64,000 bases of DNA from an uncultured cyanobacterium. GTDB lineage: Bacteria; Cyanobacteriota; Cyanobacteriia; Cyanobacteriales; Cyanobacteriaceae. How positions within the stretch are numbered: position 1 is the first letter of the stretch; each line of letters begins with the position of its first letter. The translations under genes and the position numbers were made by a program. Below are positions 1 to 9,868 of this stretch, in pieces. Below the pieces are notes generated by a model. It was not told the origin of the DNA. It made no database searches and saw nothing but the letters and a program-made list of their open reading frames with translations. The DNA lies in NCBI GenBank assembly GCA_963710605.1, contig CAVQBA010000004.1:1312001-1376000 (forward strand), read 5' to 3'.

Positions 1-779
1 ATTGACCTGATTCGACATAATCAGCGTAAAGCATTTTACCAGCTGAATCGGCTACTTCTTCAGCAACATCATTATAATTCCAAGTACGTAAAAAGTCTGG
101 ATTGCTTGTGTCTCCATCTCTTTTACCGATCGAAGAACGATTATCACCATCAGCACAAAGAAGATTATAACCGACTGATTGAGTTAAACGAATATCACGA
201 GCAAAAATACCATCACTAGACGCAACTAAAACTTCTTGCCAGTCACGGAAATAAGCGGCACGACGAGATTGGACATGATTCGCTTTTTTAGCTAATTGTT
301 GATTAGCACCAAGTAACACATCTCCCATTTCTTGCATATTACTACAGTTACCTAACCATGCGTCTTTGTTCTTTAAGGTTGGCATAATCTCGGAACATTT
401 CTAAATTGATTTCGGGAACAAAAGATGCTCCAGAAGGTGTGTTGAGAGCTAAGATTGATAATGCTTTTTCTAAGGCTAGTTTTAATCCGGTAAAAGAAAG
501 ATCGTTAGTGCTGACATAACATTCACCTTTACCTTTAAAAACTCTTACCCCTGCACCTGTGGCGAGTCTGGGGGTGATACTAGTAATACGATCGTCTTCG
601 GCTAAACAACTAATATAATTACTTTTTTCGAGGAAAAATTCGACAAAATCCGCACCTGCCGCCCTTCCTAAACCTAGTAAGGTGGAAAGTGGTTTTTCCC
701 ATGTTAAATCAAAACGATCGTGACTAGGACTATAGGATAAATTAGGAATTTCACGGGATACTAGTAAGGTTGGAGACAT
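1..779 (-). CDS. tldD: TldD/PmbA family metalloprotease, 5' part (runs off window start; apparent 1-nt frameshift near 372)
   Basis: ORF 348..779 has the TldD N-terminus ([17 protein letters not shown]); the shifted frame continues [10 protein letters not shown]...[11 protein letters not shown]...RDIRLTQS...[13 protein letters not shown] to the window edge. Confidence 0.85.
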
Positions 780-1565
780 ATAATTATTAACTTTTCTCTT
801 TACTTTTTACTTTGATTCTTACCCCTATTCTACTACGCTCAATCTGTAATTCACATTCTTAGTCATTAATAACCATTGCTTATTCTTTATTTATCTTTGA
901 TTTAAAATTAGAATAAAAGCGGTTTTTGGCACTTCATTCTTTCAATCGATCGTTTTCGCTGATTTTGCCTATTTTTGCCCGATTTTGACCGTTGACTTTT
1001 AAGTACAAATTTCGTATTATGACACTTACAGTGTTGGGTTAGTTACTTTGTCAATTTTTGAAATTATCTACCTCAAACTATAGTAAAAAGGTTAAAACGT
1101 AATATCTCTACATTTAGCTTAATTTAACTTAGCAATTCTGTGGTGTAACTGTTTATGAAGGTAAGCTTGACAAATAAGACCAATACGACTAAAAAATATA
1201 CAAGTTTTAATCTTCCTCATCAACTCGATCGAATTAATAATTAATAATTTAATAGAAGTAAAAGCGAGCTTTTTTATTTGACAAAGATAGATAATCATCT
1301 AGTAATACCATAGTGTTCGATATAACTGATGATAAATAGACTATACATAGTAGTTGATATTCTTTACTCCTTACCGATTAACTATCTAGTTCACAAAGCA
1401 TTGATTAGTCTTGTCCCTTGTACGAGCGTCCTTCAATTGAAGGTTTTATTTTAAATAGTTAGTCTTCTGGTTGAAAATCGATCGATTTATTGACTTAATA
1501 GAATGTCAACAGAAAAATATATAATTGAAGAGAAAAAATAAATTAAGAAAAAAATAACGAACTTA

Positions 1566-2054
1566 ATGACCAAAATGAGTGGAACTTTACAACCAGCTTG
1601 TCATTCTAGTAATAACACTTTGCCAAACGAGCGTCAACCTTGGGGACAACATTTAGTCCTAGACATCGGTGGTTGTAACGACAATATTTTAACCAAAGAA
1701 AAGATTAGTAATTTTGTGCAAGAATTAGTCTGTGCGATCGATATGGTTGCCTATGGTGAACCACAAATCGTTCATTTTGCTGAACATAGTTATGAAGCCG
1801 CTGGTTATTCTTTAGTTCAATTAATCGAGACATCCGCCATTATGGGGCATTTTAGTGACCATAATCGTGATGCTTATTTAGATATCTTTTCTTGTAAAAA
1901 ATTTGATAATCAAATAGCTATCGATGTTGTGCAAAAACACTTTGCCCCTAACAAAATCAAAAGTGTTTGTCTTAATAGAGGCATAAATTTACCCTCAGAT
2001 AATAGCGTTGTTTCTCGAGTCAATTATTTATCTCAAGTTACCAGCACAACATGA
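1566..2054 (+). CDS. S-adenosylmethionine decarboxylase-like pyruvoyl-dependent decarboxylase proenzyme (divergent)
   Basis: WGQHLVLDIGGC, GYSLVQLIETSAIMGHF, AYLDIFSCK motifs of the short SpeD/AdoMetDC fold; ATGA overlap with the next gene. Confidence 0.85.
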   Translation: MTKMSGTLQPACHSSNNTLPNERQPWGQHLVLDIGGCNDNILTKEKISNFVQELVCAIDMVAYGEPQIVHFAEHSYEAAGYSLVQLIETSAIMGHFSDHNRDAYLDIFSCKKFDNQIAIDVVQKHFAPNKIKSVCLNRGINLPSDNSVVSRVNYLSQVTSTT

Positions 2055-3154
2055 GTTTGAAGACACCTTATTATTTAATCGACGAGAGTAAGTTGCAACA
2101 AAATCTCGATCGAATTAATTTTGTCCGTCAAAATTCGGGTGCCAAAGTTGTTTTAGCTTTAAAATGTTTTGCGACATGGGCAACTTTCAAACAAATACAA
2201 CCTTTTTTAGATGGTACAACTAGTAGCTCATTTTATGAAGCCAAACTAGGTTATGAAGAATTTGGTAAGGAAGTTCATGCTTATAGCTGTGCTTTTTCTC
2301 AAGCTGATATTGATCAGTTAAAGGGATTTGCTGATAAGGTGATTTTTAACTCTCTTGCTCAATTACAAAGGTTTCACCGTGATTTAGAGCCAATAAATTT
2401 AGGATTAAGAGTCAATCCGCAAATAAGTTATTCAGATTATCAATTAGCTAATCCCGCTAGACGTTATTCTCGTTTGGGCGTAATTAATCAGCACGATATT
2501 GAGCAAAATCTATCTTTAATTAACGGTGTCATGCTACATTACAATTGTGAAAATAGTGATTATGACAATTTTGCTACTGTTTTAGATCAGATTGTCGATC
2601 GCTATAGCCATATTTTACAACAGTTAGATTGGTTAAGTTTAGGAGGTGGTATTAGTTTTACTCAACCTGATTATCCGCTACTAAAATTTAGCGATAAACT
2701 CAAAGCGATTAGCGATCGTTTTAAAGTACAAATATACTTAGAACCGGGAGAAGCAGTTGTTTCGCAAACTACTTATTTGGTGGTAGAAGTGTTAGATATA
2801 GTCTATAACGAAATTGAAATTGCGATCGTTAATAGTTCATTGCAAGCACATCTACCAGACTTATTAATTTACAATGATTCAGCTCAAATTGCGTCACCAT
2901 CAGCAGGAGAATATCGTTATATGATAGCAGGGCAATCTTGTTTAGCAGGGGATATTTTTGGCACTTTTGGTTTTGAAAAAAAATTGCAAATCGGCGATCA
3001 AATTTGTCTAGCCAATGCAGGAGGTTATACGATGGTGGAAAATAACTGGTTTAATGGTTTAAGCAAACCCTCGATCGTCATTCGCAAAAGTAACGGTGAA
3101 GAACAAATAATCAAACAATTCTCTTACAGTGATTATAAATCGTCTTTGTCGTGA
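2051..3154 (+). CDS. nspC: carboxy(nor)spermidine / carboxyaminopropylagmatine decarboxylase (PLP, alanine-racemase fold)
   Basis: TPYYLIDE, LALKCF (PLP Lys), SRLG, LGGG, LEPGEA, SCLAGD, YTMV.NNWFNG. Confidence 0.9.
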   Translation: MSLKTPYYLIDESKLQQNLDRINFVRQNSGAKVVLALKCFATWATFKQIQPFLDGTTSSSFYEAKLGYEEFGKEVHAYSCAFSQADIDQLKGFADKVIFNSLAQLQRFHRDLEPINLGLRVNPQISYSDYQLANPARRYSRLGVINQHDIEQNLSLINGVMLHYNCENSDYDNFATVLDQIVDRYSHILQQLDWLSLGGGISFTQPDYPLLKFSDKLKAISDRFKVQIYLEPGEAVVSQTTYLVVEVLDIVYNEIEIAIVNSSLQAHLPDLLIYNDSAQIASPSAGEYRYMIAGQSCLAGDIFGTFGFEKKLQIGDQICLANAGGYTMVENNWFNGLSKPSIVIRKSNGEEQIIKQFSYSDYKSSLS

Positions 3155-3224
3155 AAACCATCTTTTTTTGTGAACAAATTGTCAGGTGATTTATCCAATC
3201 AGAATATACCATTGCCTTAATACT

Positions 3225-3249
3225 GTAAGGGTTGAATATTACTCAACCC
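3225..3249 (+). repeat. REP-like hairpin (GTAA-GGGTTGA-N7-TCAACCC)
   Basis: 7-bp inverted repeat preceded by a GTAA tetranucleotide in the nspC-dehydrogenase spacer. Confidence 0.4.
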
Positions 3250-3408
3250 AAAACTTGAGAATTCTGGTGTTAATTATCAGTTGTCGTATCGAACACTATG
3301 GTATTACTAGATGATTACGCATCTTTGGGTATGTAAAAAGTAAAAAACAAAAAGCATTAATGGTTTGACTGTTATTATCTGTTAATTATAAAAATTAATC
3401 TATTGTCA

Positions 3409-4629
3409 ATGAAAAAAAACGTCTTAATTATCGGTGCAGGAGGTGTAGCTAATGTCGCTGTTCATAAATGTGCTCAAAATAATGATATCTTGGGAAATAT
3501 TAACATCGCCTCTAGAACGATCGATAAATGTAATCAAATTATCGAAAGTGTCAAACGTAAAAATAGTTTAAAAGATAAACAAGGTCAACTTAAAGCTTAT
3601 CAATTAGATGCCTTAGATATTGAAGCTACCATCAAATTAATTGAAGAAACTGATACCCAGATTGTGATTAATTTAGGTACAGCTTTTATTAATATGTCTG
3701 TGCTTCAAGCTTGTCTTAAAACAGGAGTTGCTTATATTGATACAGCAATTCACGAAGAACCTGATAAAATTTGTGAAACTCCCCCTTGGTATGCTAATTA
3801 TGAATGGAAATATTTAGCAGAATGTCAAGACAAAGGAGTCACCGCAATATTAGGAGCAGGATTTGATCCAGGCGTAGTTAACGCTTATAGTGCTTATATG
3901 GTCAAACATCACTTCGATCGAGTAGAAGAAATTGATATAGTTGATGTTAATGCTGGTAATCACGGTAAATATTTTGCCACAAATTTTGACCCCGAAATTA
4001 ATTTTCGAGAATTTACAGGCGGCGTTTGGACGTGGATTGATAAACAATGGCAAAAGTATCAAACCCATGAAATCAAAAAAACTTACGATTTACCTATTGT
4101 GGGTGAGCAAACAGTTTATTTAAGTGGTCATGATGAGTTGCACTCATTATCAAAAAATATTGACGCTAACAGTATTCGTTTTTGGATGGGGTTTAGTGAT
4201 CATTATATTAACTGTTTTACCGTCTTAAAAAATATTGGCTTACTTTGCGAGCAACCCGTAACTACCGCCGAAGGTTTAGAAGTTATACCGCTAAAAGTGG
4301 TTAAGGCTTGTTTACCTAACCCTGCTTCTTTAGCTGAAAATTATCAAGGTAATACATTTATTGGTAATATTGTCAAGGGAGAAAAAAATGGTCAAGAAAA
4401 AACAATGTTGATTTATAATACCTGTGATCATGCTCAATGTTATCAAGAAGTAGAATCTCAAGCTATTTCTTATACTGCGGGTGTACCGCCAGTCGCTACG
4501 GCGATATTAATTGCGAGGGGCGATTGGGATTGTCATTCAATGAAAAATATCGAAGAATTAAATCCTGATCCTTTTCTTGAATTACTAGCTAAAATAGGTT
4601 TACCTTCAGTAGTTAATAGTTTATTGTAG
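3409..4629 (+). CDS. carboxy(nor)spermidine dehydrogenase (saccharopine dehydrogenase family)
   Basis: IIGAGGVA Rossmann motif, GAGFDPG, FATNFDPEINFRE, HDELHSL, QAISYTAGVP; adjacent to nspC (ORF track starts at TTG 3403). Confidence 0.9.
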   Translation: MKKNVLIIGAGGVANVAVHKCAQNNDILGNINIASRTIDKCNQIIESVKRKNSLKDKQGQLKAYQLDALDIEATIKLIEETDTQIVINLGTAFINMSVLQACLKTGVAYIDTAIHEEPDKICETPPWYANYEWKYLAECQDKGVTAILGAGFDPGVVNAYSAYMVKHHFDRVEEIDIVDVNAGNHGKYFATNFDPEINFREFTGGVWTWIDKQWQKYQTHEIKKTYDLPIVGEQTVYLSGHDELHSLSKNIDANSIRFWMGFSDHYINCFTVLKNIGLLCEQPVTTAEGLEVIPLKVVKACLPNPASLAENYQGNTFIGNIVKGEKNGQEKTMLIYNTCDHAQCYQEVESQAISYTAGVPPVATAILIARGDWDCHSMKNIEELNPDPFLELLAKIGLPSVVNSLL

Positions 4630-4707
4630 ATATGATCGATCTCATCTATAATTTATTTATTCACTCTAGACACTCTAGACACTGTTATCTGGATTACGGT
4701 TTAATTT

Positions 4708-4971
4708 ATGTCCCAAAAATATAATTCTCGTGTTTATGTTACTCTACGACCATCAGTCTTAGATACGGCTGGTACTGCTGTAAAATCAGGATTACAACAG
4801 TTAGGTTATCAAGGAGTAGAAGATGTTAGGATTGGAAAATATATTGAAGTGACTTTATCTGCTGATAACCAAGACGATGCAGACAAACAATTACATAAAA
4901 TGTGTGATCAATTATTAGCTAATCCTGTCATTGAAAATTATTCTTTTGAGTTAAATACAGTAGAAGAATAA
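4708..4971 (+). CDS. purS: phosphoribosylformylglycinamidine synthase subunit PurS
   Basis: VTLRPSVLDTAG, VRIGKYIE, LLANPVIENY. Confidence 0.97.
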   Translation: MSQKYNSRVYVTLRPSVLDTAGTAVKSGLQQLGYQGVEDVRIGKYIEVTLSADNQDDADKQLHKMCDQLLANPVIENYSFELNTVEE

Positions 4972-5056
4972 ATTGATTAGAGAAAGATAAATAAGTAGAT
5001 TTTTTTTGAAGTCTGTAGCAAGTTTTACTGTTTAAATAAGCAAGATAAGGTAGCAA

Positions 5057-5737
5057 ATGAAATTTGGTGTAGTTGTTTTCCCTGGAAGTAATTGCGATCG
5101 AGATATAGCAATGGTAACCGATGGTATTCTTAATCAACCCACTCGTATGATATGGCATCAAGAAACCGATATTGATGATCTTGATGTGGTAGTAGTACCC
5201 GGTGGGTTTAGTTATGGTGATTACCTGCGTTGTGGTGCAATAGCCAGATTTTCACCTGTAATGAAAAGTATTGTGGCTCATGCTAAGGCTGGTAAATTAG
5301 TTTTGGGTATTTGTAATGGTTTTCAGGTACTTACAGAAGTTGGTTTATTGCCAGGGGCGTTAATTCGTAATCGAGATATGCACTTTATTTGCGATCGAGT
5401 TTCGGTTAAAGTAGAAAATAATACTTCTGTCTGGACAAAAGGTTATCAAGAGCAAGAAGTGGTTTGTTTGCCTATCGCTCACGGAGAAGGTAACTATTAT
5501 GCTGATGAAGATACATTAAAGTCTTTAGAAGATAACGGACAAATATTATTTCGTTATTCTAGCTCTACAGGTAAAATTAATAATGAAAGTAATCCTAATG
5601 GTTCGTGTCATAACATTGCTGGGATTACTAACAAACAAGGAAATGTATTAGGTATGATGCCTCACCCAGAAAGAGCAAGTGATCAACTTTTGGGTTTAAC
5701 TGACGGTAAACCACTTTTTGCTAGTTTGCTAACTTGA
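5057..5737 (+). CDS. purQ: phosphoribosylformylglycinamidine synthase glutaminase subunit PurQ
   Basis: [33 protein letters not shown]. Confidence 0.97.
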
Positions 5738-5829
5738 ATTGAAAAGATGAATAAATAATGGAGATAAATACCTGCTTCGCACTTTTTTGGTAAAACTAAA
5801 TATATCTGATGTGGTCATGAAAAGTAATC

Positions 5830-5878
5830 AACTCTGAACTCTGAACTCTTAACTTTTAACTCTTAACTTTTAACTCTT
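5830..5878. repeat. heptamer short tandem repeat (STRR; AACTCTG/AACTTTT)
   Basis: seven consecutive 7-mers immediately before the ATG at 5879. Confidence 0.9.
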
Positions 5879-6559
5879 ATGTCAACGATCGAAAAACTCA
5901 TTTCTCAAATAAAAACCGAAGCCCAAAAAGAAGAATTTCCTGTAGATATAGATGTTTATAAATCAGCGGATAAAGATCCAAATGAACCAATTTTATATTA
6001 CGGTAATTTAGAAAGTAATATTTGTTTTTTAGCTCGAGATTTGGGTAGAGATGAGGTAATAGCCGGGCAACCATTAATCGGTGCATCTGGGCAATTAGTT
6101 CGGCAAGGTTTTTATCAAGCAATCCATCAAGAAAAGACTGAGGATAAAACTAAACTAGATTCAATTAAAGATCGTTTGATTTTAACCAATACAGTACCTT
6201 ACAAGCCACCCGGAAACAAAGCATATTTACAAAAAGTCAAAAAAAGATTTCGTCCTTTCATCGCTCAATTATTAGTATGTTACTGGCAGGGAACACAAAT
6301 AATTACATTAGGTACAGAAGCGTTTAAATGGTTTAAAGATTATTCAACTAAAGAAGAGATTGAGCAATTTTGGTCACAAGGTGATTCACGTTATCAAAGT
6401 AGTTTGCAAGTTAATCTCACTGCTAAAAATGATGATGGCGAAACAAAAAACAAATTAGTAACTGTTTATCCTTTACCTCATCCTTCACCTTTAAATCAAA
6501 AATATTATAATAAATTTCCTCATATGTTACAAAATACTATTTCTCAACTTGATTTTTAA
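5879..6559 (+). CDS. uracil-DNA glycosylase superfamily protein
   Basis: ARDLGRDE...GQPLIGASG, LTNTVPYKPPGNK, IITLG, LPHPSPLN. Confidence 0.8.
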   Translation: MSTIEKLISQIKTEAQKEEFPVDIDVYKSADKDPNEPILYYGNLESNICFLARDLGRDEVIAGQPLIGASGQLVRQGFYQAIHQEKTEDKTKLDSIKDRLILTNTVPYKPPGNKAYLQKVKKRFRPFIAQLLVCYWQGTQIITLGTEAFKWFKDYSTKEEIEQFWSQGDSRYQSSLQVNLTAKNDDGETKNKLVTVYPLPHPSPLNQKYYNKFPHMLQNTISQLDF

Positions 6560-6760
6560 AATAACCGACGTTTACGTACTCATGTTTCGGTTGTTAGGTG
6601 TTTAGAATAATTGACAATTGACAATTGATAATACTTCTTCCTCATTACTCCTTACTCATTACTTTTCTTTTTTTAATCTCGAACTCAGCTTAGCTATATT
6701 GTATAGTTTAGAGATAGAAAGTTACAAATAGAACAATTATTAATTATTAATTATTAATTA

Positions 6761-9700
6761 TTAATTATCGATGAATTTTTCTAATTTACTGGTCAAAATA
6801 TCAGGAGTGATTGGTTTACTAATATAGTCACTCATTCCTGCTTCTAAACATTTTTCTTGCGCACCTCTCATTGCATTCGCCGTCATGGCAATAATTGGTT
6901 TATTTTGGTTATGTATTCCTGCTTCACCTTGTCTGATTAATTTAGTCGCTTCATAACCATCCATTCGTGACATCAAACAATCCATTAAAATTAGATCGTA
7001 GCTAGATTCAGGAGAAGTTTTACTTAAGATTTCGATTGCTTCTATTCCATTCTTAGCAACTGTAATATTATTTAATCCTTGTAATCCTAAAAGCCCTTTG
7101 ACAACAATCTCATTGGTTTCATTGTCTTCTACTAATAAAATACGAAAACTATGTAACTCAGGAGATAAATTATCTAATTTACGATTATTGATTGTTGATG
7201 ATGAACTATCTGTCGTAGTCGGTTTCGGTTGAGGACAACGAATTAGCTCTTTGGCATTACTAACTTTTGTTAAAATCTCTAATAAATGGGTAACTACGAA
7301 AGGTTTAGACAGATAATATTTTATTTCTAATTCAGAAGAATAATTAGCATGACAATCGTGAGTCATTAAAATAATTGGTATTGGTTGAAAATAGGCATCA
7401 GCTTTAAGTAAAGTAATTAATTCTAAACCATTAATCATCGGTAGTTGTTCATCAATAATCATCACATCAAATAAACAACCAGAAGGTATTTGACTGATTT
7501 TAGATGAGTTATTCATTGTTTTACACAAATTCCATGCTTTAATCCCATCTACTGATTCGGTTACATCAACTCCCCAAGCTTCTAATTGGTTAGTTAAAAC
7601 TTGACGGCTAGTATCATTGTCTTCGACGACTAAAACAGATAAACCATTTAAGGAAGAAGAAACTGTAGTTGCTTGAGTTGGGTTTACCTCACTCGCTTGT
7701 AACTTGACTGTAAACTCAATCTTAGTTCCTTGATCGATCGTACTTTGCACTTTTATATTACCACCCATTAATTCACATAAATTTTTACAAATAGCTAATC
7801 CTAACCCTGTACCACCATATTTACGAGTTGTACTAACATCTACTTGAGTAAAATGCTCGAATAGACTATCAATTTTTTCTTCACGAATGCCTATACCAGT
7901 ATCTTCTACTATGGTATGTAAAATTAGATCGTTGCCTAAATTTTCTAAACGGCATTTGATCATAATTTCCCCTTGCTCAGTAAATTTTAGGGCATTACCG
8001 ACCAAATTAGTTAATATTTGTCTAAAACGAGAAGGATCACCTTTAACAAAGGTATCGTTTCTATATGGTAAGTCTAAGATTAATTCTAAACCTTTTTGAC
8101 GAGCTGGTAAAGTCATGGAACTAACAAAGTCGTTAATTTCTTGATAAAGATCAAAATCGATTATTTCTAAATCTAGTTGACCTGCTTCTATTTTAGAAAA
8201 GTCAAGGATATCATTAATTAAAGTTAGTAATGATTGAGCACTTGATTGAGCTATTTGGACGTAGGATGCCTGTTGAGAGTTAAGCTTACTTTTTTGTAAA
8301 ATATCAAGCATACCAATAACACCATTCATGGGCGTTCTAATTTCATGACTCATATTAGCGATAAAAAGACTTTTGGAGTTATTTGCTAATTCGGCTATTT
8401 TTTTCGCTTTCAAATATTTTTGAGCTAAATGATTACGTTGTTCTACTTCTTTTTGTAATGATGTATATAATTCTGCTTGTTGGATAGCGATCGCAATTTG
8501 AACTGATAATCTTTTTAAAAAGGATATTTCTGACTCTTCCCACTTTCTGGTGTAAGAACATTGATTGACAATTAATAAACCCCAAAGTTTTTCACTAGAA
8601 TTTTGAACACAAGTAACAATTGGAGCAATTAAGCAACTACTAATATCAAAGTTAGTGAGTAATTCTAAATATTGCTCATTATCAGGTGCTAGTGATAATT
8701 GATCATTAAATTGATAAATTTCACCATTTTGATAACTATCTAGCGAAGTAAGTGGACAATCTACACTGGCAATTTCCATTCCTAAACAAGCTTGCCAAGG
8801 TTGGTTTACAGATTCGGCGGTAATAAAACCTTTATTTTCTTTTGCTAACTGATAAATAAATGTTCGATCGCTATTAAGAAAACCTCTAACTTCTCTAACT
8901 GTAGCCGATAAAACATCTTCTAGATTTAAAGAGCGACGAATTCTTAAAGATATATCACTAATAATTTGTTCTTGTTGTTGAGAACGAATTAAACGAATTT
9001 CTGATTTAACTTTATTGGCAACGGCTTTAACTGTATCTTGTAATTTAAGTGGCGTTAAGTCGTTTTTAACTAAATAATCAGCCGCTCCTTCTTTCATGGC
9101 TTTAACAGCACGTCTTTCGTCTCCTTGACCTGTTAAAATGATAGCGGGTAAAATACTAGTTGGGTAATCTGGAGCAATCTTATTGAGAAATTCAATCCCA
9201 TCACCATCTGGTAAACTAAGATCGATTAAAAGTACATCAGGACGTTCTACTTTCCACAAGTCATAGCCTTCTTTTAAGGTTTCGGCTTCTAAATAAGTAT
9301 AAATATGTGTTTGATCTGAATTAAAATAACGAATATATACTTCACGATCGATCGGCGAATCATCAATCATCAATATTTTGATTTTATTCTCTGATAATAG
9401 GCAATAATTATTACTGTTATTATCTGAAGTAGGAATTAAATTATCTAATCTACTGGTAGTTGTATCCGAAATTAGATTTAAAAGTTGGCTAGAGATATCT
9501 TTTTTATGTACATAATCTATTGCACCTAACTTAATTGATTTAGCCGCTATTTGTTCATTACCTTGTCCTGTCACAATCACCACAGGTACATTAATGCCAC
9601 TATCTTGTTTTTCCTTCATGATTTTTAGCAACTCTAAACCATCCCCATCAGGTAAAATCAAATCTAAAAAGATTAAATCAGGTTGTTCATCTTGCCATAA

Positions 9701-9868
9701 CTTAATTCCTTCTTGTAAAGTCTCCGCTTCTAAAATATTGTATTCACGAGAGGAATCTTGCTCTAAATAACGAATATATGTTTCTCGATCGCTTTTTGAA
9801 TCCTCAATTAAAAGAATTGTTATCACTAATACTTCTTGATTATTTTCGTTCGATGGTTTGTTGGACAT
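6761..9868 (-). CDS. hybrid sensor histidine kinase REC-REC-GAF-HisKA-HATPase-REC-REC
   Basis: receiver motifs FLDLILPD, LIDLSLPD, IIDEQLP, LMDCLM; H-box MSHEIRTP; NLVGNALKFT, DTGIG, GGTGLGL. Confidence 0.92.
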   Translation of the reverse strand: MSNKPSNENNQEVLVITILLIEDSKSDRETYIRYLEQDSSREYNILEAETLQEGIKLWQDEQPDLIFLDLILPDGDGLELLKIMKEKQDSGINVPVVIVTGQGNEQIAAKSIKLGAIDYVHKKDISSQLLNLISDTTTSRLDNLIPTSDNNSNNYCLLSENKIKILMIDDSPIDREVYIRYFNSDQTHIYTYLEAETLKEGYDLWKVERPDVLLIDLSLPDGDGIEFLNKIAPDYPTSILPAIILTGQGDERRAVKAMKEGAADYLVKNDLTPLKLQDTVKAVANKVKSEIRLIRSQQQEQIISDISLRIRRSLNLEDVLSATVREVRGFLNSDRTFIYQLAKENKGFITAESVNQPWQACLGMEIASVDCPLTSLDSYQNGEIYQFNDQLSLAPDNEQYLELLTNFDISSCLIAPIVTCVQNSSEKLWGLLIVNQCSYTRKWEESEISFLKRLSVQIAIAIQQAELYTSLQKEVEQRNHLAQKYLKAKKIAELANNSKSLFIANMSHEIRTPMNGVIGMLDILQKSKLNSQQASYVQIAQSSAQSLLTLINDILDFSKIEAGQLDLEIIDFDLYQEINDFVSSMTLPARQKGLELILDLPYRNDTFVKGDPSRFRQILTNLVGNALKFTEQGEIMIKCRLENLGNDLILHTIVEDTGIGIREEKIDSLFEHFTQVDVSTTRKYGGTGLGLAICKNLCELMGGNIKVQSTIDQGTKIEFTVKLQASEVNPTQATTVSSSLNGLSVLVVEDNDTSRQVLTNQLEAWGVDVTESVDGIKAWNLCKTMNNSSKISQIPSGCLFDVMIIDEQLPMINGLELITLLKADAYFQPIPIILMTHDCHANYSSELEIKYYLSKPFVVTHLLEILTKVSNAKELIRCPQPKPTTTDSSSSTINNRKLDNLSPELHSFRILLVEDNETNEIVVKGLLGLQGLNNITVAKNGIEAIEILSKTSPESSYDLILMDCLMSRMDGYEATKLIRQGEAGIHNQNKPIIAMTANAMRGAQEKCLEAGMSDYISKPITPDILTSKLEKFIDN

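Follow-up and report, generated by a model that had tools for sequence, protein, structure and literature searches.

A speDC-casdc-casdh cassette predicted to make spermidine from L-ornithine in an uncultured cyanobacterium, and its probable acquisition by horizontal transfer

A 64,000-nucleotide stretch from the genome of an uncultured cyanobacterium (GenBank assembly GCA_963710605.1, contig CAVQBA010000004.1, positions 1,312,001 to 1,376,000; hereafter the window) carries a three-gene cassette in which a gene resembling that of S-adenosylmethionine decarboxylase (AdoMetDC, SpeD) precedes those of a carboxyspermidine decarboxylase (CASDC) and a carboxyspermidine dehydrogenase (CASDH). We consider it very probable that the cassette is a complete route from L-ornithine to spermidine, independent of decarboxylated S-adenosylmethionine (dcSAM), that was probably transferred in and replaced the pathway of the host's family. 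The system itself is already known: its biochemistry has been characterised in a homologue of 70% identity that shares the gene order. In window coordinates, the three genes are:

1566-2054, + strand: speDC, 162 amino acids (aa); proenzyme of the AdoMetDC fold (class 1b), predicted to be a pyruvoyl-dependent L-ornithine decarboxylase
2051-3154, + strand: casdc (nspC family), 367 aa; pyridoxal phosphate (PLP)-dependent carboxyspermidine/carboxynorspermidine decarboxylase
3403-4629, + strand: casdh, 408 aa; NADPH-dependent carboxyspermidine dehydrogenase, putrescine type by its residues (I116, W129, H243-D244)

In the proposed route, the 162-aa proenzyme would cleave itself before Ser90, leaving an N-terminal pyruvoyl group, and the mature SpeDC-type enzyme would decarboxylate L-ornithine to putrescine. 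CASDH would condense putrescine reductively with aspartate beta-semialdehyde, at the expense of NADPH, to give carboxyspermidine, from which the PLP-dependent CASDC would remove the carboxyl group to yield spermidine. Self-cleavage, specificity for ornithine and the final product are predictions from sequence; obtained directly were the gene order, the fold, the Ser/His/Cys residues, clade membership, the identity to an enzyme that has been assayed, the signature of the dehydrogenase and the failure to find other diamine routes in the assembly. The layout described in the original prediction, which was made from the DNA letters alone and placed a SpeD-like gene in ATGA overlap with a carboxy(nor)spermidine decarboxylase gene and the dehydrogenase gene next, was confirmed in both the DNA and the family matches, the casdc start overlapping the speDC stop in the ATGA at 2051-2054.

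Proteins of this kind have been described by Li, Liang, Phillips and Michael (JBC 2023, PMC10407285; cited here and below, like the other papers, from the parts of the text available). They reported SpeD homologues in genomes that lack SpeE, often clustered with casdh/casdc, hss or speY, and identified them as pyruvoyl-dependent arginine (SpeDA) or ornithine (SpeDC) decarboxylases. The SpeDC proteins formed one clade with diagnostic Gln, Thr, Phe and Tyr residues around the processing site, while a Pro that is fully conserved in bona fide AdoMetDCs was lost in SpeDA and SpeDC (PMC10407285). One of the assayed enzymes, RWX43081 from Ca. Electrothrix aarhusensis, used L-ornithine only, with a kcat/Km of 340 M-1 s-1 (Table 3 of PMC10407285), was inactive on Arg and Lys, and did not rescue E. 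coli speD. The suggestion in the original prediction that the system was undescribed was consequently mistaken, as it had been published under the name SpeDC. The window protein was 70% identical to RWX43081.1 (86/122 residues, gap-free), and an open reading frame (ORF) of Ca. Electrothrix aarhusensis among the loci of our genome scan (L011:3868-4272) was identical to it letter for letter.

The SpeD-like protein matched the Pfam family AdoMet_dc (PF02675) at 64.6 bits and fell short of the AdoMetDC equivalog TIGR03330 (40.7 bits versus a cut-off of 75.65); SpeD proteins of relatives scored 118-132 bits on PF02675 versus 65 bits for the window protein. Searches of the PDB by sequence returned either nothing at E <= 1 (phmmer) or, using a profile built from a 30-sequence alignment, a weak match to the AdoMetDC of T. 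maritima (E 0.019). An AlphaFold2 model of the protein had a mean predicted local distance difference test score of 85.3, exceeding 95 over residues 31-130, and its best Foldseek matches were the T. maritima AdoMetDC structures (1tmi/1tlu/1vr7), with template modelling (TM) scores of 0.84-0.86 by target length and a root-mean-square deviation (rmsd) of 1.7-2.2 Å at about 20% identity. It was this comparison of folds that decided the matter, in favour of the class 1b AdoMetDC fold.

The central motif of the protein reads ...QLIETSAIMGHF...YLDIFSC, and over a longer span ...VQLIETSAIMGHFSD...AYLDIFSC. Within it Ser90, His95 and Cys110 have +5/+20 spacing and align to S63, H68 and C83 of T. maritima AdoMetDC (processing Ser, catalytic His and Cys), so that the cysteine of DIFSC is indeed kept, as the original prediction had noted. 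Residues Q85, T89, S90, H95, F96, Y104 and C110 were invariant in the 30-sequence alignment, and the pattern QLIETS...HF...YLD.FSC was present in all 120 among the matches listed. The four diagnostic SpeDC residues are represented by Q85, T89, F96 and Y104, in common with RWX43081. The Glu-to-Thr and His-to-Ala substitutions that had been pointed out from the letters were also borne out, since the window protein has ETS-A where canonical SpeDs of the phylum have AES-H; D98 stands in the column of the AdoMetDC Pro and T89 in that of the Glu, unlike in bona fide AdoMetDCs. In other genomes of the phylum, the 19 SpeD-like proteins found carried AES-H...HT, 11 of them with the AdoMetDC-specific Pro. 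Eight of these 19 (L097-L099, L101, L103, L104, L106 and L107; families f35 and f36) kept AES-H...HT and had Gln or Glu for the Pro, a pattern that Li et al. 2023 linked to SpeDA arginine decarboxylases. The few named database relatives of the window protein carry the name S-adenosylmethionine decarboxylase, a name that should not be given to the window gene.

In a maximum-likelihood tree of 100 sequences, the window protein and RWX43081.1 fell in a clade of six with 97% support (Shimodaira-Hasegawa-like approximate likelihood ratio test), and were split from the SpeD/SpeDA-like proteins of the phylum with 100% support, the cassette grouping with copies from Gammaproteobacteria and cable bacteria; the tree was made by a quick method from 141 columns, many of its deeper forks were unresolved, and two rows were on long branches. 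A scan of species-representative genomes yielded 80 loci (the prefix L is used for loci throughout), fetched with flanks of up to 6 kb, shorter on some contigs. Closest to the window protein, at 64-79% identity, were seven loci from Gammaproteobacteria metagenome-assembled genomes, Ca. Parabeggiatoa, Thiogranum and Ca. Electrothrix. All seven had casdc directly downstream, followed by casdh in six, the contig of the seventh ending inside casdc, while the remaining 73 loci had neither casdc nor casdh within the fetched flanks. Because it recurs in the seven closest of 80 loci, the speDC-casdc-casdh arrangement is not a product of chance, and the recurrence on which the original prediction had staked itself beforehand was thus found.

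Both downstream genes belonged to the expected families. The product of casdc passed the nspC equivalog TIGR01047 (421.1 bits versus a cut-off of 409.05), had as its best solved relative 3mt1_A, a 'putative carboxynorspermidine decarboxylase' (428.4 bits), and was 54-63% identical to the product of the gene after speDC in the seven closest loci (L008-L014). That of casdh matched Sacchrp_dh_NADP (PF03435, 110.8 bits) and Sacchrp_dh_C (PF16653, 107.2 bits), and was 73-76% identical to full-length cassette copies, 64% identical to a fragment (L013), and 41-47% identical to the homologues in the phylum, which are of the agmatine-using type. Xi et al. (Sci Adv 2023, PMC10599626) distinguished this agmatine-using carboxyaminopropylagmatine (CAPA) dehydrogenase, CAPADH, by the residues N104/F113/E228, from A. 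tumefaciens CASDH (I113/W126/D241) and from V. cholerae carboxynorspermidine dehydrogenase (CANSDH; V112/E125/D240). The window enzyme has I116/W129/D244, with the +13/+115 spacing of A. tumefaciens CASDH, and the I/W/H-D signature was also found in all five cassette copies that cover that region. The CAPADH signature N/F/H-E occurred in all 15 casdh homologues from 400 other genomes of the phylum, and the four solved casdh homologues were all N..F..H-E. By these residues the dehydrogenase is predicted to be of the putrescine rather than the agmatine type, and as such would fit an upstream ornithine decarboxylase and argues against an agmatine route.

We then considered the remainder of the host genome, whose assembly spans 3.93 Mb over seven contigs, with a completeness rating of 84.88%. 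Among its genes is one for a photosynthetic reaction-centre protein (PF00124, 186.5 bits); its relatives in the genome collection all fall within a single phylum, and we treat the host as an oxygenic cyanobacterium. Across these 3.93 Mb, PF02675 matched a single gene, the speDC, and no canonical SpeD was found. The search for speE gave a single PF01564 match, a borderline one at 22.5 bits that lies on contig C7 and not in the window; it was rejected since its best match was to MnmC2 tRNA methyltransferase models (109.4 bits, below the cut-off of 136). No speE was thus found, and the statement that the window has none holds for the assembled genome also. For speA, the best TIGR01273 match (74.7 bits) was set aside as lysA (479.7 bits on TIGR01048), so that no speA was found in the assembly, and alanine-racemase (AR)-fold decarboxylase searches matched only lysA and casdc. 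Nor did the genome yield an agmatine deiminase (PAD_porph), an archaeal-type pyruvoyl arginine decarboxylase (PvlArgDC), a deoxyhypusine-synthase (DHS) homologue, or a second Sacchrp_dh_C protein such as a homospermidine synthase.

A single arginase-fold gene in the genome scored 802.9 bits against the solved 'Probable agmatinase 2' (7esr/7oi1), presumably the Synechocystis Sll1077 protein. A Guanidine-I riboswitch (RF00442, 75.7 bits, the gathering score being 63) stands ahead of it, and the second gene after it is a hypA homologue, in the following arrangement:

L003 (G000, the host genome, contig C4, 595094-598921): gdmH-type locus; riboswitch 1023-1163, gene 1207-2421, a 200-aa ORF, and hypA-like nickel chaperone gene 3517-3828

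The gene gdmH (sll1077, formerly speB2) encodes a Ni-dependent guanidine hydrolase and has the same locus arrangement (PMC12704784). On the strength of the riboswitch, hypA and the structural match, we rejected the arginase-fold gene as an agmatinase-type enzyme and assigned it to the gdmH-type guanidine hydrolases. One decarboxylase of the aspartate aminotransferase (AAT) fold, 495 aa in length, was also present, and had a homologue in 21/21 relatives, SpeA carriers included. Cyanobacterial AAT-fold homologues did not support polyamine synthesis once the AR-fold arginine decarboxylase had been deleted, and are probably not polyamine-related (Li et al. 2021, PMC8503589). As genomic context for a SpeDC, therefore, no SpeE, canonical arginine or ornithine decarboxylase, or agmatine-to-putrescine enzyme was found.

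The original prediction had proposed a repurposed amino-acid decarboxylase feeding a compact three-gene, dcSAM-independent pathway, with agmatine, putrescine or another diamine as the product. This stands in outline, with putrescine from ornithine as the predicted diamine and agmatine given up. We favour ornithine because of the I/W/D signature, because no agmatine-processing enzyme was found, and because of the 70% identity to a strict ornithine decarboxylase.

Several points weigh against this interpretation. The ornithine specificity predicted for the window enzyme derives from that 70% identity together with motifs, and substrate switches do occur, as one arginine decarboxylase, that of Pelagibacter phage HTVC201P, lies inside the SpeDC clade (PMC10407285). 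The placing of the diagnostic Gln/Thr/Phe/Tyr of Li et al. on Q85/T89/F96/Y104 is our own mapping; across the 80 SpeDC-like loci the F96 column was Phe in 50 and Thr in 29, and the corresponding counts for Q, T and Y are circular, given that the fetching patterns contained those residues. The CASDH signature consists of three residues from the alignment and docking of one paper (PMC10599626), and casdh scored below the cut-off of the NCBIfam carboxynorspermidine synthase (CANSDH) model NF043000 (474.3 versus 800 bits). Between casdc and casdh lies a repeat-bearing spacer of 248 bp, and a single transcript for the cassette is an assumption. Finally, the gene absences mean not found in 3.93 Mb of assembly at the completeness given above, and the same-genus genome used for comparison is 67% complete.

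Of the alternatives, the one that fares best is that the SpeD homologue is a SpeDA-like arginine decarboxylase whose agmatine feeds a CAPA-like route as in Synechocystis. The pathways of this type seen in cyanobacteria are agmatine-based, with CAPADH/CAPADC, and CAPADH-type genes of this kind (Xi et al. 2023) were present in some relatives within the phylum; the arginine decarboxylase of phage HTVC201P within the SpeDC clade and the arginase-fold protein of the host also speak in its favour. The dehydrogenase, however, carries I/W/D and not the CAPADH-specific N104/F113/E228, the arginase-fold protein is the gdmH-type guanidine hydrolase behind its riboswitch, agmatine deiminase was not found, and the closest assayed enzyme, RWX43081, was inactive on arginine, which together leave this alternative unlikely.

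Use of another substrate, such as lysine or 2,4-diaminobutyrate, would lead to a different triamine, for instance aminopropylcadaverine or norspermidine, and would be in keeping with the acceptance of more than one carboxy-polyamine by CASDC and carboxynorspermidine decarboxylase enzymes and with the NCBIfam names of both downstream genes, which refer to norspermidine. We judge it very unlikely, as lysine was used by none of the AdoMetDC homologues assayed in PMC10407285 and the dehydrogenase has I/W where V. cholerae CANSDH has V/E. Slightly less probable again is a genuine AdoMetDC with a polyamine-independent role or an unrecognised aminopropyltransferase partner: the fold, the catalytic Ser/His/Cys and one weak Spermine_synth-like match in the genome agree with it, but the protein fell below the TIGR03330 cut-off, has D98 for the conserved Pro and Thr for the Glu before Ser, and is 70% identical to a homologue that did not rescue E. 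coli speD, while the weak Spermine_synth match is MnmC2-like.

Turning to the origin of the predicted ornithine-to-spermidine cassette, we found no SpeDC homologue of more than 31% identity in any of 400 other genomes of the phylum. Neither the cassette CASDH nor the SpeDC profile had a match in five relatives (the same-genus genome and four genomes of the family), both queries matching the host genome itself. All 12 family members had a canonical SpeD (118-132 bits on PF02675), the sole further genome of the genus among them; SpeE was present in 11/12, and SpeA in 10/12 (18/20 close relatives). When the SpeA, SpeE and SpeD of relatives were searched against the 3.93 Mb by tblastn at E <= 10, there were no remnants, and the matches were to lysA and speDC only. 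In one family relative (L140, G402:C152:3000-6000), the gene directly downstream of a canonical speD (134-aa frame) is a 309-aa member of the Spermine_synth family; this classical pair was not found in the window's genome.

DNA homology with the same-genus genome sets in 4 bp ahead of purS, which lies downstream of the cassette, and is absent upstream of that point; purS and purQ have 80-85% DNA identity between the two genomes. No empty insertion site could be demonstrated, the gene order upstream of purS being shuffled in all six family chromosomes examined. The GC content of the cassette (0.34-0.36) is close to that of the genome, and its GC content at third codon positions (GC3) is 0.22-0.26 versus 0.15-0.21 in neighbouring genes. 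As for a mobile vector, plasmids (four records) and phages (eight records) held homologues of at most 38% identity and no cassette-type protein. That the cassette is misassembled or a contaminant is scarcely credible: none of its closest relatives is cyanobacterial, and GC3 runs a little higher in it than in the neighbouring genes, but the cassette lies inside a 1.42-Mb contig, adjoins purS and purQ of the identity just given, has an overall GC matching the window, and bears, upstream and within, a genome-native repeat with about 20 further matches.

The cassette is thus resident and foreign in ancestry. Most likely horizontal transfer brought it in as one unit from Gammaproteobacteria or cable bacteria, the candidate donors, or it is shared with them. 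It appears to stand in place of the SpeA, SpeD and SpeE genes of the family. We lean, by a small degree, towards a fairly recent natural swap of a whole pathway, in which the S-adenosylmethionine (SAM)-dependent SpeA/SpeD/SpeE pathway of an oxygenic cyanobacterium gave way to a cassette that also occurs in large sulfur bacteria, other Gammaproteobacteria and cable bacteria. The transfer of clusters that encode whole pathways and replace that of the host was raised by Li et al. 2023 (PMC10407285) as no more than a possibility; such a swap, if true, would be a concrete case of it, and would place a pyruvoyl ornithine decarboxylase in a photosynthetic cyanobacterium.

Two further elements, both carrying a dispersed repeat, complete the layout of the locus:

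3155-3402, no strand: casdc-casdh spacer, 248 bp, with one dispersed-repeat copy at about 3269-3328
1282-1336, no strand: second dispersed-repeat copy, inverted, within the 786 bp that precede speDC; matches the copy at about 3269-3328 with 84% identity over 57-58 nt

A blastn search of the spacer against the genome found the further repeat matches, of 30-58 nt, on contigs C1, C5, C6 and C7. The repeat is about 40-58 nt, and its copies cluster at 25-30 kb of C7 and at 554 kb of C6. Rfam gave no match in window positions 1-7000 at E <= 1, the spacer included, and promoter-like (17 versus 21.8 expected) and terminator-like sites (1 versus 1.9 expected) were no better than in shuffled sequence. 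The likely start of casdh is an ATG at 3409. The start codon of speDC is uncertain between 1566 and 1620: the ATG at 1566 places 25 residues ahead of the conserved WGQHL, and these extra residues were modelled with low confidence, while the alternative TTG at 1620 would give a family-typical length. The closest metagenomic SpeDC relatives (P0002, P0005, P0008 and P0010), 74-87% identical in the core, have predicted N-terminal extensions of about 35-75 residues before WGQHL; these are acidic, of low complexity and partly alike between P0002 and P0008, and the contigs are short.

The cassette is flanked by housekeeping genes, namely a TldD/PmbA gene upstream on the opposite strand and purS, purQ and a uracil-DNA glycosylase (UDG)-family gene downstream. 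The TldD/PmbA gene (2-779, - strand) is split into overlapping frames of 143 aa and 358 aa, with the overlap at 348-385 (L136, 5310-6780). The split reflects a frameshift, whether genuine or introduced in assembly, and frequent frameshifts of this kind could explain the rated completeness of 84.88% for a seven-contig assembly. Further downstream, 6761-9868 (- strand) encodes a 1035-aa multi-domain sensor protein that, by eye from its translation, has receiver-like regions at both ends, two of them N-terminal, around a histidine-kinase core.

What is new here is modest, namely that the host is an oxygenic cyanobacterium and that horizontal transfer has apparently replaced a whole pathway; the cassette opens no new kind of biochemistry. 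In the literature available to us, including a 2026 paper on homospermidine (PMC13625781), we found no report of SpeDC in an oxygenic cyanobacterium, and supplementary species tables may list one. For the host, the cassette predicts a SAM-independent synthesis of spermidine, with ornithine and aspartate semialdehyde as the starting materials, rather than the cyanobacterial agmatine (CAPA) route. The evolutionary interest of the cassette is as a testable case of an entire polyamine pathway crossing phyla and displacing a resident one within a genus-level time span.

Among known systems, the cluster of Ca. Electrothrix aarhusensis is the nearest, having the same three genes in the same order with the same central motif, and its SpeDC, CASDC and CASDH are 70%, 58% and 75% identical to those of the window. 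It differs in that the window's host is an oxygenic cyanobacterium, a phylum not in the list given in the abstract of PMC10407285, in the roughly 20 additional N-terminal residues of the window protein if ATG 1566 is used, and in the speDC/casdc ATGA overlap and repeat-bearing 248-bp spacer before casdh that the window has. The CAPA pathway of Synechocystis sp. PCC 6803 (PMC10599626) likewise has a homologous dehydrogenase and decarboxylase, uses aspartate semialdehyde as donor and does not need dcSAM. Unlike the window enzyme with its I/W/D, however, CAPADH (N104/F113/E228) takes agmatine, and the pathway needs an arginine decarboxylase and an aminopropylagmatine ureohydrolase, neither of which was found in the window's genome; the phylum's CAPADH-type proteins are, at 41-47% identity, distant from the window dehydrogenase. 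With the SpeD of T. maritima (1TLU, 1TMI, 1VR7), the window protein shares the fold (TM 0.85, rmsd 1.8-1.9 Å) and Ser/His/Cys at the same spacing, while around the active site it has Gln, Thr, Phe/Asp and Tyr for Val, Glu, Thr/Pro and Ala, and it is set apart by the identity of about 20%, the TIGR03330 result and a SpeE partner that was not found. Finally, the classical CASDH/CASDC route (A. tumefaciens, and V. cholerae for norspermidine) resembles the cassette in the I/W/D residues at A. tumefaciens spacing and in an nspC-family decarboxylase that scores above its cut-off; in the window, in contrast, the predicted source of putrescine is a small AdoMetDC-fold pyruvoyl enzyme, and not a PLP-dependent ornithine or arginine decarboxylase.

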